A stretch of DNA of 63,743 bases, the filler included, from Reclinomonas americana ATCC 50394 (taxonomy: Eukaryota): the NCBI GenBank assembly GCA_048213135.1. It is 4 parts of 2 records of this genome, joined end to end, with 100 filler letters (N's around TTAATTAATTAA, not from the genome) between each part and the next. Parts side by side here need not be neighbours in the genome. Positions count along the whole stretch, not along the records: positions 1 to 29,627 come from PS015073.1; 3 more parts are not named here. One strand, 5' to 3'. The position numbers and the translations under genes were made by a program. Position 1 is the stretch's first letter; each line of letters opens with the position of its first letter. This document shows positions 7,614 through 37,886 of the stretch, in pieces. Below the pieces are notes generated by a model that was given only the letters and a program-made list of their open reading frames with translations, was not told where the DNA came from and searched no databases.

Positions 7614-15480
<7,867 letters not shown>

Positions 15481-15953
15481 GGGGGGTGGTGAGAGTGGGG
15501 GGAGGGTGAGAGACAGGGGGGGAGTAAGAAAATGTCCTGTGGTGATGCATGAACGTCGCGAGAGACAACTTCGTTGAGGGGAGCAGCAAGACGACTCGCA
15601 TGGTCGCTTATTGCAACTGTAGCGTCGTTTTGTGAGAGCAATGATGTCGCGAGCCTAGCAATCATCACCAACGTATCTCTCAACAAGCACGTGCACGCGC
15701 GCGCGCGTACGTGCGCGCGAGCGAGAGAGGTTTGTGCGTTAAATGCAAAGATAATTGGAGGTTTGATACTGGAGACTTGTGGAGTGCGCGTAACAGCCGA
15801 GCGATCGCAAAGCGACAAAGCGCTTCGACAAGGGATACGTTCATTGTCGAATTATTTGTGGGCTTTTGTCGCATTGTTGGAAGGAGGCGAATGAAGTGTT
15901 TGTTTGCTTTCATCATGGCAAACCTCTCTATTTCGACAGGGATGTGGTGACGT

Positions 15954-18900
15954 TTACCCAAACAGAGTGTCGGAGAAATCTAGCAAAAAGGAACCAAAGA
16001 CGCGCTCAACCAAGTCTCCCTGTCGAACAAGGTACATCGCCTTATCTAATGCAGCAATGGCGAAGTCGTATGACTTGACTGCAGCGCGGGTTGTGCCGGT
16101 AAAGTCGTTTAGTGCGTCTAGCGGCACTTCTTCTCCACTTGCGAGGGACCACACACGCACGACATCATCACTACTCGCACTTACAATGTGCTGTCCGTCA
16201 GAAGAGATTGCGACTGACCATACATCTGCTACATGGCCTTCCAAGAGAAGGATTTCTTCACCAGTTGCCGTGGACCATACTCGCACGGTCTTGTCTCTAC
16301 TCCCACTCACAATTAATTCACTGCCCGGAGCAACGACGACCGACAATACCCTCTCAGTGTGTCCTTCCAACCGTCTTACTTCTTCTCCACTCGCCGCTGA
16401 CCACTTTCGGACTGTATAATCGTCACTCCCACTCATTATGTGCAGACCATCCGGAGCAACCGCGACAGAGAACACACCCCCAGTATGTCCCACCAGTCGT
16501 CGCACTTCATTTCCACTCGCCAGTGACCATATTCGCACAGTATCGTCATCGCTCCCACTGATTACGTTCTCACCATCGGGAGTGACGGCGACAGAATTCA
16601 CCCATCTCGTGTGTCCTTCAAATCGTCGCACCTCCTCACCACTCGCCAGTGACCACAATCGAACCGTTTTGTCAACACTACCGCTCACTACGTGCTTACC
16701 ACTGGGAGTGACTGTGACGGAAACAATGAAGCCAGTGTGCCCCACCATCTGTCGCACTTCTTCGCCATTCAACAGAGACCAAACTCGCACTGTCTTGTCA
16801 TCACTTCCACTCACGATGTGCTGACCATCAGGCGTGACGGTGGTAGACGTCACAACTCCAGTGTGCCCCTCCAACAGTCGCACATCTTCTCCAGTCGCCA
16901 GTGACCAAACACGAACTTGCATGTCTTCGCTCCCGCTGACTACGCGTTGACCATCCGGAGTGACAGCAACAGAACGCACAAATCCGGAGTGTCCCTCCAA
17001 CTGTCTCACTTTTTCTCCACTCGCCAGTGACCACACTCGCACAGTCTTGTCCGCACTCCCGCTCACAACATGTAGACCATCGGGTGTGATGGCGACAGAC
17101 AGAACCCACCCAGTGTGTCCTTCCAGCCTTGTCATTTCCTTTCCGCTCGTCAACGACCACACACGAACTGTCTCGTCATAGCTGCCGCTCACAACGTGCT
17201 GACCGTCGGGAGTGACGGCGACAGCATGCACCTCTCCAGTGTGTCCCACTATTGGCTTCCTCGGCCACTTCACCCCCGTCACATCCGCCCCCCTGAAATC
17301 CGCCTCCCTTGCAAACGCCATGCACACATTCACCCCCTGCAAGTCTGCTCCCCTCCACACCGTCCTGTGCATCACCGCATCCCTCAAATCCGCACCCCTC
17401 ACTCGCACACCCGACAGATCTCGCCCACTGAACGACACTTGTGCCACACACAACACCGTCGCTGCATTCGCCGCTGCTGTCACCACTCGCTCCTCATCCA
17501 CCTCGCGTGACAGCTCAATCACCTCCCACAATCTCGCTTGCAACGCAGGAGATCGTCGCACCACCTCGGCCATCTGCTCCACCAGCGATGGTCGATCATT
17601 AAGCAGTCGCACTGCCAGCACATGCTGCTGCACATCCTCGATTGCCAGCTTCCTTCCCTCCTCCCACGTCTCCCACACAAAAACATGGCGTGCAACGCAG
17701 TGCTCCAGTAACGAAACGTGCACGAATCCCCACTGGTCTGTCCCGTACCGTCGCACAATCGGACAGCACACTCGCACATGCTGGTTCTTGTGGCCAAGGA
17801 ACTTGTCAAATGGCCCGTCCTCTGCTCTCGCAGCTGGCGACGAAGGAGCACCGCCAAAGTCATCCTCCTCCCCAACCTCACCTGATCGACTCTCCGTCAC
17901 AGACACACGCACCACATTTCTCTCATGCATCAACCGTGCCAGTCCCTCACAGAATGCTAGACACGTCTCCTCCTTCGGCACACGCTCTGCACCAAGACGT
18001 GTCTGCCTCTCCTGCTCCCTCACAATCCACTGTCGAATGAATCGGTCAAACACGTCACACCGAGTCGGTCGCTGCACTCCACTCGCCACCAATTGCGGCA
18101 GCACACGAGCCACCACTGCCAACATGAATGGATTCGACACCAGTGCATCCAGTCCATGCACACTCTTCAGTCCACGATTGTACTCCTCGGCAGTCGACCA
18201 CCGTAATTCGCTGCAACTACCGTCAACACTGCCAACAAGCACCAGTCGCTCAAAGTACTCCTCAATCTGTTCTGCGCTGAACGGTGCAATGTGCCGCTCC
18301 ACCAGCTGATGCATGCTTAACTGTCCTCGTGTATCCATAGATGCAAAATACCGTCGACATTGCGTATCACCACCGAGAACTGTGAGCGCATAATCACCTC
18401 GACAAGTGATAATCACCTTCACATCGCGACACATATCAAGCTGGTTCTTGACGAAGAGATTCACACCACGATACAACTCGTCGTACCCGTCGAGTAACAA
18501 CAGCAGCGGTTCCTCCTTCAACCGTCGCACGTCCGCCTCACTGAATCCCAACTCGGGTGACAGTCGCTCCAGTGCCTCCTCCAACAATCGCTCCTCGGCA
18601 TTGCGCAGAGCACCCAGTGGCACACGAATAGGAACCCGTCGTCCGTATCCTCGTGACTGTCGTTCTTTCCATGCATGCGCAGCCAGCACCGACATGGTGG
18701 TGGTCTTGCCGGCTCCACTGCTACCAAATAGCACCAACACACGATGGGTGGTGTTGGCGTCGGAGAGGAAAGTATTCACCTCCGCCAACAATTCCGTCAT
18801 TTTGTCTCTCGAAGAGACGTCGCTCTCAGGTGAGCACAGCAGTGGCACATACATCTGCATGTCCTTGCGCACACTTTCGTCACGCTGATAGAACAAGTCC

Positions 18901-20118
18901 TCACGCAGAGCCAGTCGATGAAGCCGCTCCTCGAATGTGCTGATGACGTGCTGAACGAAACGCGCTTCCGATATGCGAGTGGAGAATTGCGCACGTTCGT
19001 CAGCCGTTAGCTGCAGTCGAGCGAGTATAGAGAGAAAGACACCACCGTCACCGAGGTACTCTTGCACACTGGTCTCAGTCAACGCCGACGACCCGTGCAC
19101 CAACTCGTTACGCACCTGGCGTATCTCTTCCAGCGCATTGCGTTCTTCAACATCGTCAATCAGCAGCAGTGTGCGACCGTCATCACGCACAAGGCCACCG
19201 AATAGCAGGATCGACACCAAGGCCGTCACATCGAATGTATCACACGAAGGATCGGAGGTGGGGTCGGCATCGAAAGCAGACTTCCAGTTGAGCATGTGCT
19301 GCTGCTGCTGTGCATACAACTTGACGCGACCGGGGGCGAGTGGTGCATGCCGCTCGTACCACTCCCGGATCATCAACGGATGCCAGAACAACGGAGGCGT
19401 CCACACGTCAGGAGTCCAAGCCCGCACATCAAAGTTCGGATGATCACGGCACATTTGCGCAAGTGATCGGCGACACCGAAGACGCATGGTGTCGGTCACC
19501 GTATCCATCGCCACTTCGATACGATTCGAGTGGACCATTCTGCACAGACCGCAACGCAGAGAGAGAGAGAGAGAGAGATATGAACACAATTGACATCGGA
19601 TGGAACAAAGTTTTCTGTCGCAGACGACAAACCGCTCTGACCATGACGATGTCCTGATCGGCGAGAACGCACGCGCGTGAGCTCAACACGTCGAAGCACG
19701 AACCAAGTGTTGCACTTAAATTACCTCGTGACTTCGCCCGCAGACGCAGCAGACGCAGCAGGTGACATGGTCATCCGCACCACCACTGGCGTACTCGCCT
19801 TGATGCCCAGACTGCGCAGCTTCGCTCCGCTCATGTCTCCCAAGTCGAACTCAGCCGGCCTCTCTACTCCAACAATCTCTATACACGCATCTCCACTCCT
19901 GTCGCACAGCAAGCGGGTGGCCTCGCGCAGCAAGTCCGCGAGAGTGGACAGGGCCGTCAAGCCCTCCACAAACACCGCGAGAGCCGAATCATGAGCCGCA
20001 CTCACGTGCACAGAGAACTACGTCATACGTACACAAAGACAAAACGGCGGTCAATTAAACGTAGCGAGAGAGTCACTATTTATCCGCGCATGATTATGCG
20101 ACATGCGCTCACCGACAT
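15954..20118 (-). CDS. NLR-like STAND protein: ubiquitin-like + HEPN + NACHT + pentapeptide repeat + 9 WD40 repeats (about 1301 aa)
   Basis: Phase-consistent exons 20118-20113 (ATG TCG), 20017-19725, 19653-19633 and 19539-15954, all GT-AG. HEPN-like FDVTALVSIL...EEIRQVRNELVH (RxxxxH); Walker A GSSGAGKTT; NACHT Walker B LLLLLDGYDE; KVIITCR; NPFMLAVV; winged-helix FVHVSLLEH; AAANAATVL followed by pentapeptide repeats; nine 42-aa GH...W repeats. Confidence 0.88.
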
Positions 20119-20544
20119 TTTTGAGTTCTCTTCTCACACACTCTCCAGCAGCGCACGGCAGCTGCTTAAGGTTCTCACAAAATCAACACACACGGCCGAT
20201 CTCTTCTCGTGTTGCGACACGCGATCCTCCAAGTCGTGCGTGTGATCGCGACGTCGTCGGTGATCTCGCGTGTGACAGGACGTTCGACGGTCTCAATCAC
20301 CGCGCAAACTTGCTCATCTTCTCCGCTCCCCTCTCTCTCTTCCTCCCCACTTCATGTATCCCGCGACACGTGCTGGATATAATGACGCTGCGCATGTGGT
20401 CACAGTTGACCGCGAGAGACGTCGACGTTGACAAGAACTCGACGTCGCGATCGCCAATTTGGCGATCACTGGTTGTGCTGACGTCGTTGTGCTCACTGTT
20501 GTGCATAGATTAGTGAAGTTTTTATTATAATTATTGCCCCTCCT

Positions 20545-36730: not shown

Positions 36731-37253
36731 TCACTTTTCCTGCTCGGCCTGCTGCTTCCTCTGCTCCTCCGCGGCCGCGGCCATGTGCTGCAAACGTGCT
36801 TCGCGAGCCGGGGCCATCAGCTGCTCGATTTCCTCGACACTGGTCGGCACACTCGCCGTCAGCACCTCGCGTCCTTCCTTCGTCACCATCACGTTGTCTT
36901 CGATGCGGATGGCGATGCCACGGTACCTGCTCGTGTGGCGATCAGCATAGAGTGGGGGGAGACGTGAAGGAACTGGCCACAGCGCGCAACTTTTCCGGCA
37001 CGGTTTCGTCGTCACGGCGCAGATACAGGCCCGGCTCGATGGTGACCACCACGCCCGGCACGAGCGGAGTGGTGAGGCGCACGTTCTGCGAGTCGTGCAC
37101 GTCGATGCCGAGGTAGTGGCCGATGGAGTGCGGGTAGTATTTGAAGTAGTCGGTGGAGCTGGGCAGCGTGAAGCCGAGGCGGCGCAGGCCGGCGGTGAGA
37201 AGTTGCACGGAGGCGAGGTGGATGTCGTGCATCGTGCTGCCGGGTTGGACCAT
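36731..37253 (-). CDS. Xaa-Pro aminopeptidase (peptidase M24B, Icp55/XPNPEP3-like), last two exons only
   Basis: Metal-ligand motifs YYPHSIGHYLGIDVHD, PGVVVTIEPGLY and GIAIRIEDNVMVT. One short intron at about 36989-36927. Confidence 0.85.
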
Positions 37254-37886
37254 CTGGAGGGCGAAGGAGAAGGGGAAGGAAAGGGGAAGGGAAATGAGGG
37301 AAGGAACAGGGGGAAGGGGGAAGGGGAAGGACGGGGAAGGGAGAAGGGGGAAGGAGAAGGGGGAAGGAGAAGGGGGAAGGAGAAGGGGAAGGAGAAGGGG
37401 GAAGAGCAGGGAAGGAAAAGCGGGAGGAGAGGGGAACGGAGAACGGAAGAAGGAGAACCGCAGAAGGAGAAAGGGGGAAGGAACAGAGGAAGCAATAGGG
37501 AAAGGAGCAGAGGAAGGAGCAGAGGAAGGAGCAGGGGAAGGAGCAGAGGAAGGAGAAGGGGGGAAGTTGAAGGGAGACGAGCACATCTTTCTACCACTGC
37601 CTTCTCTGACTCTTGGCCGTGGGCACTCGACCACAATGCGTCGATTGTCAAGAGTTGCACAACGGGTGTCGTTCCACTCAACTCCTGCTTCTCCCTCTAG
37701 GGAGACAACGAGGGAGAGGCTGATTGCACTTTGTCCCTTTTCTTCCTCTCTCTCTCTATCTCCATGCTGTGAGCTTTCTGACTCAAGTGTCGCTCTCTTC
37801 CTCTCGCGAGAACCTTCTGCGCACGCACCACTTGCTGTTCTCCCTCCCTCTCCCTCCCTCCCTCCTCCTCCTTCCCCCTTCCTCAC

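Follow-up and report, generated by a model that had tools for sequence, protein, structure and literature searches.

A NACHT-pentapeptide-WD40 gene of Reclinomonas americana with an orphan N-terminal domain that may be a divergent HEPN ribonuclease

The window, that is, the whole stretch of DNA analysed (63,743 nucleotides (nt), filler included, from Reclinomonas americana ATCC 50394), contains on its minus strand a real gene for a large NACHT-WD40 sensor-type protein of an intron-bearing eukaryote. The encoded protein appears to consist, in order, of an orphan N-terminal helical domain, a NACHT nucleoside triphosphatase (NTPase), a helical region, a pentapeptide-repeat linker, and nine WD40 repeats; this reading taken whole, with the N-terminal domain as a HEPN-type ribonuclease (RNase), has a slightly better than even chance of being right. 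The open reading frame (ORF) of 1211 amino acids (aa) of the initial annotation was recovered at 15954-19589 when the DNA was read, and is by far the longest in the window; the count of 1211 codons runs from a TTG, the earliest ATG being M18 at 19538. The features of the protein are as follows, from the C-terminus to the N-terminus.

15954..16112, minus strand: C-terminal tail of 52 aa with TAA stop codon (15954-15956), from the sequence
16113..17246, minus strand: nine tandem 42-aa WD40 repeats, aa 782-1159 (Pfam WD40)
17265..17438, minus strand: pentapeptide-repeat linker, about aa 718-775 (Pfam PF00805)
18246..18743, minus strand: NACHT NTPase domain, aa 283-448 (Pfam PF05729)
18477-18491, minus strand: Walker B, DGYDE within LLLLDGYDE (family alignment)
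18702-18725, minus strand: Walker A, GSSGAGKT, aa 289-296 (family alignment)
18951..19538, minus strand: orphan N-terminal helical region, aa 18 to about 213, candidate HEPN effector, without homologues
19095..19112, minus strand: RNELVH (R160-H165), candidate Rx4H catalytic motif, from the sequence

The body of the protein is well defined. The Pfam NACHT profile matches over positions 1-162 of 167 (expect value (E) 2.4e-10; 40.9 bits against a cut-off of 26.7), and in an alignment of five sequences of the family the columns of G289, S291-K295, and D367-E371 are invariant, which bears out the earlier description of an intact P-loop and Walker B. The pentapeptide repeats and nine WD40 repeats described at the same time are likewise present: the pentapeptide profile matches with E 9.7e-7 (best stretch, aa 746-773), and its block AANAxTxL...FSGxDLxG...GADL is kept in aligned relatives, while the WD40 profile matches in nine stretches (E 1.4e-94) that correspond to nine exact 42-aa units starting at aa 782. 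At the DNA level, Tandem Repeats Finder describes the array as 6.3 copies of a 126-nt period with 71% matches; the units have a mean pairwise identity of 61% in amino acids and 66% in nucleotides. Most of the variation among units is held by positions 5, 7, 23, and 25 (7, 8, 7, and 5 different residues); in WD40 structures these positions correspond to the top face of the propeller, the usual side of ligand contact.

Relatives of the body are mostly bacterial. A word-index search with aa 1-480 returned only four proteins among 8000 scored candidates, at 28-32% identity, one of them labelled Mortierella. When one genome of each prokaryotic species was scanned with a pattern, 553 stretches matched, 59 of which encode relatives; these amount to 55 loci with 24-36% identity over approximately aa 225-1160, the same span over which tblastn of the body against the relatives gives E values down to 7e-151. 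From about aa 225 onward the alignment is collinear, taking in the NACHT motifs, the pentapeptide block, and the WD40 repeats, which places the body, by sequence, in a family that is largely bacterial. Assemblies labelled Mycoavidus cysteinexigens, an endosymbiont of Mortierella, contribute more than 30 of the 55 loci (L001-L039); since a near relative of the Mycoavidus copies is labelled Mortierella, host-symbiont exchange or mis-binning is possible. Other loci of the family come from Chlamydiae, Coxiellaceae, Legionellales, Nitrospirae, Myxococcales, and Gammaproteobacteria. Coxiellaceae, Chlamydiae, and Legionellales, whose assemblies include the family members L009, L012, and L034, live within eukaryotic cells. 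The N-termini of the Mycoavidus members alternate between an ARM-like repeat and an unrecognised region of about 530 aa, and one ORF of the Mycoavidus-labelled set, L021, is 3225 aa long.

The relationships within the family were considered in a FastTree phylogeny of 40 NOD regions, from which sequences with a NOD piece shorter than 450 residues or without a P-loop match were excluded. The window protein groups with sequences from Nitrospirae and Chlamydiae and with one metagenome sequence (SH-like support, 0.91); nodes inside this group have support of just 0.20-0.50, so that the branching order is not settled, and the tree does not show the direction of transfer. Bacterial nearest relatives of the body, this grouping, and a 3.6-kb ORF without an intron are what bacterial contamination or a dead, horizontally transferred relic would predict. 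Such an origin is very improbable: the gene lies on the same contig and strand as, and between, intron-bearing eukaryotic genes, its 1211-codon frame is intact with all NTPase motifs, and its composition agrees with that of the window. Contamination was rejected on the strength of the flanking genes. A TLDc-domain gene is directly upstream on the same strand (20546-21334, minus; Pfam E 4.6e-11), and its 52-nt intron (20990-20939; GTAAGT...GCTAAC...CAG) is verified, in that its removal restores the TLDc frame; because of this intron, together with SAP and RSB-motif genes on the same contig, the setting is eukaryotic. The SAP-domain gene is downstream, its ATG at 15480 lying about 470 nt past the main ORF, and with this next gene so placed, extension of the ORF by splicing beyond 15954 was rejected.

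In contrast to the body, the N-terminus of the window protein has no counterpart in the family; similarity to family members starts only at aa 214-246. The N-termini of 38 relatives were classified: an ARM-like repeat (ARM_5) is present in 14, a metallophosphoesterase domain (Metallophos) in one, only weak TPR matches in four, and no recognisable domain in the remaining 19. The N-terminal position thus looks like a variable slot, as expected for an effector or adaptor, with an occupant in the window protein that appears to be unique. This agrees with the initial annotation as far as it proposed a STAND/NACHT NTPase with a C-terminal pentapeptide and WD40 arm and an N-terminal slot that differs among relatives. 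Searches with the N-terminal domain alone were negative in each collection: there was no NCBIfam family, a sequence search of the PDB gave four matches with E 0.4-0.97, none of them HEPN, and tblastn of the domain together with the upstream ubiquitin-like peptide discussed below against the 55 related loci and the window gave only noise (E > 0.2). Pfam matched no head domain of other NLRs in the N-terminal domain at E ≤ 10.

The proposal that this domain is a HEPN RNase begins with a motif. The segment EEIRQVRNELVH carries R160...H165 at 19095-19112, within VRNELVHG (aa 159-166), and FDVTALVSIL occupies aa 119-128 (19206-19235); both the intact RxxxxH and the FDVTALVSIL helix are present as first described. 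According to Anantharaman et al. (2013; PMC3710099), the HEPN site is Rx4-6H, usually with N, D, or H after the arginine, and closes helix 3, just ahead of the loop that leads to helix 4. R160-N-E-L-V-H165 satisfies Rx4-6H with a polar residue after R, and its predicted position at the end of a helix before a loop fits this description, in a model of low confidence.

Three libraries or tools, choosing among thousands of families, converge on the HEPN superfamily. Pfam ranks HEPN_RiboL-PSP (E 0.26, 0.06, and 0.015, depending on the slice scanned; 13.7-15.6 bits against a cut-off of 28.4) and HEPN_Swt1 (E 0.056; 14.2 bits against 27.5), and PADLOC gives a sub-threshold match to RTasHEPN (E 0.015). 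In a protein atlas, the top three named clusters are HEPN_DZIP3 (0.82, with 172 of 256 features shared), HEPN_Swt1 (0.78), and HEPN_DZIP3 (0.75), and the ten best family-bearing matches all fall in one clan. Two profiles were built from bacterial domains in 401 Pseudomonadota genomes. For HEPN_Swt1, 13 genomes had a match, 12 of these above the cut-off, giving a test set of 12 domains; for RiboL-PSP-HEPN, 51 genomes had a match, and of 30 loci listed 28 domains were retained (a partial locus and another from an unpublished genome were left out). Against the RiboL-PSP profile the N-terminal domain scores 11.6 bits; none of 902 real decoy windows did as well, compared with 1 of 3000 plain shuffles and 4 of 3000 that kept the motif. 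Against the Swt1 profile it scores 5.3 bits, a value reached by 22 of 3000 shuffles, 29 of 3000 motif-keeping shuffles, and 3 of 902 decoy windows. By these comparisons the resemblance to HEPN appears to reach past the motif into its flanks. Alignment of the domain with the 12 Swt1 domains by hhalign gave P 0.028 over 22 columns of the motif helix.

Other results weigh against the HEPN assignment. No HEPN profile of Pfam or PADLOC reached its curated threshold, and three Pfam scans covering the region listed no match to HEPN_DZIP3 (PF18738) at E ≤ 10. Atlas scores count only as leads when below 0.9, and among shuffled proteins a third reach 0.8 and a third have ten of ten matches in one clan. 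The hhalign probability against the Swt1 set is merely 1.8%. The HEPN alignments span just 22-43 residues or so around RNELVH and are therefore not independent of the motif, which is itself not rare by chance: in shuffles of the region RNx3H occurs in 1.8% and R[NDH]x3H in 10.8%. The shuffle and decoy counts are optimistic, because both profile families were chosen after Pfam had ranked them best. A search of 1.84 billion representative proteins with the N-terminal domain (aa 18-282) gave no match at E ≤ 0.001, a word-index search with aa 100-245 gave 758 candidates, none of which reached E ≤ 10, and HEPN was found in none of the 38 relatives' N-termini. A single-sequence AlphaFold 2 (AF2) model has a mean predicted local distance difference test score (pLDDT) of 42.1, which is low confidence; it is all-helical, and RNELVH, followed by GSS, ends its helix 130-148, as numbered within the N-terminal domain. 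Finally, the FDxxxL helix was rejected as HEPN evidence. FDVTALVSILL is the top window against the Swt1 helix, with a spacing to the motif that fits (40 residues compared with 36), and 2440 of 20,000 shuffles match that helix equally well.

The main alternative for the domain is an unrelated, lineage-specific helical head, such as an adaptor or a membrane-disrupting bundle, in which RNELVH is a coincidence. It would account for HEPN matches that are all sub-threshold and limited to one helix, for a domain without relatives in the databases searched, and for Trp-rich first 100 residues that resemble nothing; a polar Rx4-6H arises in 28.5% of shuffles (R[NDH]x3H at the frequency already given), and the family offers a precedent for a non-enzymatic head in the 14 ARM-like N-termini, beside no HEPN in 38 members. 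Set against this are the convergence of three sources on one superfamily, the RiboL-PSP score that no decoy and few motif-keeping shuffles reach, and the lack of a Pfam match to any other NLR head. On this balance a non-nuclease head is unlikely, although it is the most serious of the competing accounts of the domain, and the N-terminal domain is probably HEPN. The initial annotation's HEPN domain thus keeps its Rx4H motif and gains concordant weak signals, and every profile match to it is sub-threshold; its closer placement with the DZIP3/Swt1-like clades by FDxxxL..RN..H retains the sub-threshold HEPN_Swt1 match and the atlas leads and loses the FDxxxL part, which is at chance level, and the HEPN_DZIP3 profile is unmatched. 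If the domain is HEPN, it is most likely a very divergent RNase with R160-N-E-L-V-H165 as the predicted catalytic motif.

The initial annotation had further joined three upstream exons of 6, 293, and 21 nt to the main ORF, supplying a ubiquitin-like (Ubl) domain. The pieces, read from the DNA, are given below in order of position.

19540..19724, minus strand: putative 185-nt intron, GTAATT...CT-run...CAG, holding an optional 21-nt exon
19633-19653, minus strand: the optional 21-nt piece
19725..20017, minus strand: putative exon 2, 293 nt, encoding the ubiquitin-like peptide FSVHVS...VVVRM...GEVT
20113..20118, minus strand: putative first coding mini-exon, ATGTCG, with donor GTGAGC

These positions, their GT...AG borders, and their phase hold; the 21-nt exon is unnecessary, since the direct join from 19725 to 19539 is in frame, as is the join through the 21-nt piece (the 93 nt from this piece to 19539 are open and in frame). 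The donor of the mini-exon is of the GTGAGC/GTAAGT type, like that of the verified TLDc intron. Exon 2 is entered after a TAG usable as an acceptor and is left at GAG/GTAATT; the acceptor CAG before the main ORF is at 19540-19542. The donors GTAATT and GTTTGT are weak, differing from the GTRAGY type at +5. Exon 2 is alone among the pieces in having independent support: its codon usage is like that of the main ORF in the proposed frame (+0.19 bits per codon) and in none of the other five, which score below zero, and among 359 ORFs, the main ORF not counted, its coding score is the 11th highest. The putative intron scores near zero. An open frame of 96-98 codons is commonplace in this region, where 44 ORFs of at least 80 aa overlap 14500-21500.

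The ubiquitin-like character of the peptide is suggested by the atlas, in which three unnamed clusters (0.89-0.91) are followed by ubiquitin (0.89), Rad60-SLD (0.88), and Ubl (0.87). Pfam, scanned to E ≤ 10, and NCBIfam gave no family for it, and its AF2 model, of low confidence (pLDDT 52.9), has one helix and no strands. A likeness to the headers of Crinkler-type effectors had also been proposed; it found no backing in a Pfam family at E ≤ 10 or in a Crinkler cluster among the atlas rows listed.

Whether the peptide belongs to the NACHT protein depends on the gene model. The frame of exon 2 terminates in a TAA (19723-19721) that overlaps the proposed donor, and it could therefore equally close a small separate gene. 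In that case the NACHT gene would begin at M18 after a CT-rich leader, and the Ubl frame at 19725-20017 would be a separate small gene, encoding MS plus 98 residues up to that TAA, or would not be in the protein. Consistent with this layout, the stop codon falls exactly at the proposed donor; GTAATT is without the +5 G of the verified intron and of the pattern hits, which were preselected for GTRAGY; the main ORF has a good ATG itself; and none of the homologues found has a Ubl joined to such a protein. Because the nearby SAP gene likewise has a C/T-rich run immediately before its ATG, the CT-run ahead of M18 may simply be a leader rather than the tract of an acceptor, a point against the spliced protein. 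The layout with two genes must, on the other side, accommodate a distance from the Ubl frame to M18 of merely 184 nt, compared with about 430-470 nt between neighbouring genes, phases that agree, a good acceptor (CT-run and CAG) only 1 nt before the ATG, and a Ubl frame without its own ATG that itself requires the upstream mini-exon. The start at M18 with the Ubl frame left out of the protein falls a little short of an even chance, and, of the two fates of the peptide as such, splicing onto the NACHT protein as an N-terminal header and a small Ubl gene of its own have roughly equal odds.

Fusion of HEPN to NACHT is not new, and the novelty that the initial annotation attached to it was overstated. 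As set out in PMC3710099, animals have HEPN domains of the DZIP3/hRUL138 and CXorf38 families joined to NACHT, such proteins are expanded in Nematostella and oyster and, in a lineage-specific way, in Capsaspora, and bacteria too have N-terminal HEPN combined with STAND; two further sources place HEPN among the enzymatic effectors of bacterial NACHT proteins, as an RNase effector (Kibby et al., 10.1101/2022.07.19.500537), and among STAND-linked effectors (PMC8195603). Five open frames that begin with bacterial HEPN_Swt1 domains in the test set (L056-L058, L062, and L063) are 1050-1223 aa long, a layout that fits the fusions of HEPN with large ATPases outlined in PMC3710099. No description of the exact domain combination of the window protein was found in the full-text literature of the limited library searched; there, NACHT with pentapeptide repeats and WD40 appears in papers on cyanobacterial caspase homologues and bacterial conflict systems.

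The closest known systems each share part of this layout. The bacterial and Mortierella NACHT-pentapeptide-WD40 proteins (Nitrospirae P0004/L035, Mycoavidus L001-L039, and Mortierella P0006) are collinear with the window protein from about aa 225 to the end and share its Walker A/B, ITCR, SNPFxL, and HxSxxE blocks as well as the AANAxTxL...FSGxDLxG linker followed by WD40; they differ in being only 24-36% identical and in their N-termini, which are ARM-like, metallophosphoesterase, or unrecognised and in no case like that of the window protein, whose gene is on a eukaryotic, intron-bearing contig. The HEPN-NACHT proteins of animals and Capsaspora, as treated by Anantharaman et al. (2013), share an N-terminal predicted RNase head on a eukaryotic NACHT protein, read as an immune or apoptotic effector. 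The best named atlas clusters of the window protein are HEPN_DZIP3, but it has no Pfam HEPN_DZIP3 match or sequence homologue; its sensor is pentapeptide plus WD40 in place of the LRR, ankyrin, or TPR repeats named there, and its NACHT body is of the bacterial-type family. Bacterial NACHT and other STAND defence proteins share the order effector, NACHT, repeats, and the nearest relatives of the window protein's body are bacterial; the window protein is eukaryotic, possibly with spliced 5' exons, and has no phage-defence context. Fungal proteins of the HET-E/NWD type (also mentioned in PMC7159879) likewise carry a tandem WD40 array behind NACHT and a variable effector at the N-terminus, and cell death is their presumed output; they differ in that the window protein has a pentapeptide linker and an N-terminal domain that is neither HET nor HeLo (no Pfam match).

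Two further comparisons concern the N-terminal region. RNase L and the Ire1 KEN domain, whose catalytic R and H are described with those of other HEPN RNases in PMC3710099, embody the principle proposed here, a metal-independent Rx4H RNase activated when an upstream module joins two copies; in the window protein the switch would be a NACHT oligomer and not a kinase or pseudokinase, and the similarity is limited to the motif helix. Vertebrate sacsin combines ubiquitin-like and HEPN domains in one protein, the Ubl link being putative for the window protein, and differs in domain order and in its remaining domains; its C-terminal HEPN is of the nucleotidyltransferase-associated group (PMC3710099).

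How the window protein might work can be proposed by analogy. The WD40 arm would keep the protein closed until a ligand binds; ligand binding would lead to nucleotide exchange in the NACHT domain and to oligomerisation, as in other STAND proteins, and oligomerisation would pair the clustered N-terminal domains. HEPN RNases require dimerisation, and the paired domains, if HEPN, would build composite Rx4H sites and with these cleave RNA of the cell or of an invader, resulting in growth arrest or cell death. The ubiquitin-like peptide 184 nt upstream may be spliced on as a header. Ligand-triggered oligomerisation with an immune or cell-death output, which would place the protein in the NLR-like class, is inferred from the architecture, established STAND biology, and the HEPN literature.

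A housekeeping role is the alternative to this mechanism: a NACHT-WD40 scaffold or regulator outside immunity, with an N-terminal domain that serves interactions only. Fungal HET-E/NWD-type genes, which encode incompatibility NLRs, carry near-identical WD40 repeats, and the repeats of the window protein fall below this level, as a non-immune protein would lead one to expect. The family has a variable N-terminus, however, and shows massive expansion inside individual endosymbiont assemblies, both of which are typical of conflict systems; the concentration of WD40 variation at four positions also speaks against a plain scaffold, and a non-immune function is improbable.

A wider scenario can be drawn, in which a unicellular or early-branching eukaryote took a receptor body from a bacterial pool to which intracellular symbionts (Chlamydiae, Legionellales, and Mycoavidus among them) belong, and capped it by exon addition with two parts invented in its own lineage, a ubiquitin-like header and an orphan HEPN-like RNase divergent enough to define a new HEPN family. 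The product would be an independently invented sensor-executioner that arrests or kills the cell by cleaving RNA. Taken whole, this scenario is doubtful. If the head is a working HEPN RNase, the protein would be one more non-animal STAND sensor with a built-in RNase, a design known from bacteria and invertebrates; an RNase head on a receptor body with its closest kin among bacteria would bear on how often NLR-like immunity of eukaryotes was put together from bacterial parts. A HEPN head would also be a new branch of the HEPN superfamily, because the domain has no relative among approximately 1.8 billion representative proteins. If the head is not HEPN, the locus would still be a clean example of an effector-slot swap in a receptor family.

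Several minor observations concern the rest of the window. Just past the stop codon of the TLDc gene is an AT-rich stretch with AATAAA-like signals. Downstream of the main ORF, the SAP domain (15238-15480, minus; E 2.7e-9) and an RSB motif (8912-9847, minus; E 8.9e-13) suggest an Acinus-like gene that extends over more than 6 kb, has introns rich in CT, and is interrupted by three N gaps. A scan for the intron pattern GTRAGY...YTRAY...YAG gave 11 candidates on the plus strand and 15 on the minus strand, at least one of them inside the WD40 coding sequence; the scan yields no unbiased donor consensus, because the pattern presupposes the donor type. The window is rich in (CT)n, (CA)n, and (GA)n repeats and has 19 stretches of N, several of which form pairs (44 N each, 12 bases apart), and strand composition is skewed over many kb (GC skew to +0.38, AT skew to +0.49). 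An Rfam scan of the 63.7-kb window gave no family. An exon-sized match to Peptidase_M24 (profile positions 120-191) at 37020-37262, minus, ends a long low-complexity open frame and implies another intron-split gene. A second, unrelated WD40 ORF at 60749-61693, plus, is open for 315 aa and resembles THOC3/WDR proteins; a database search with it returned generic WD40 matches of at most 39% identity.

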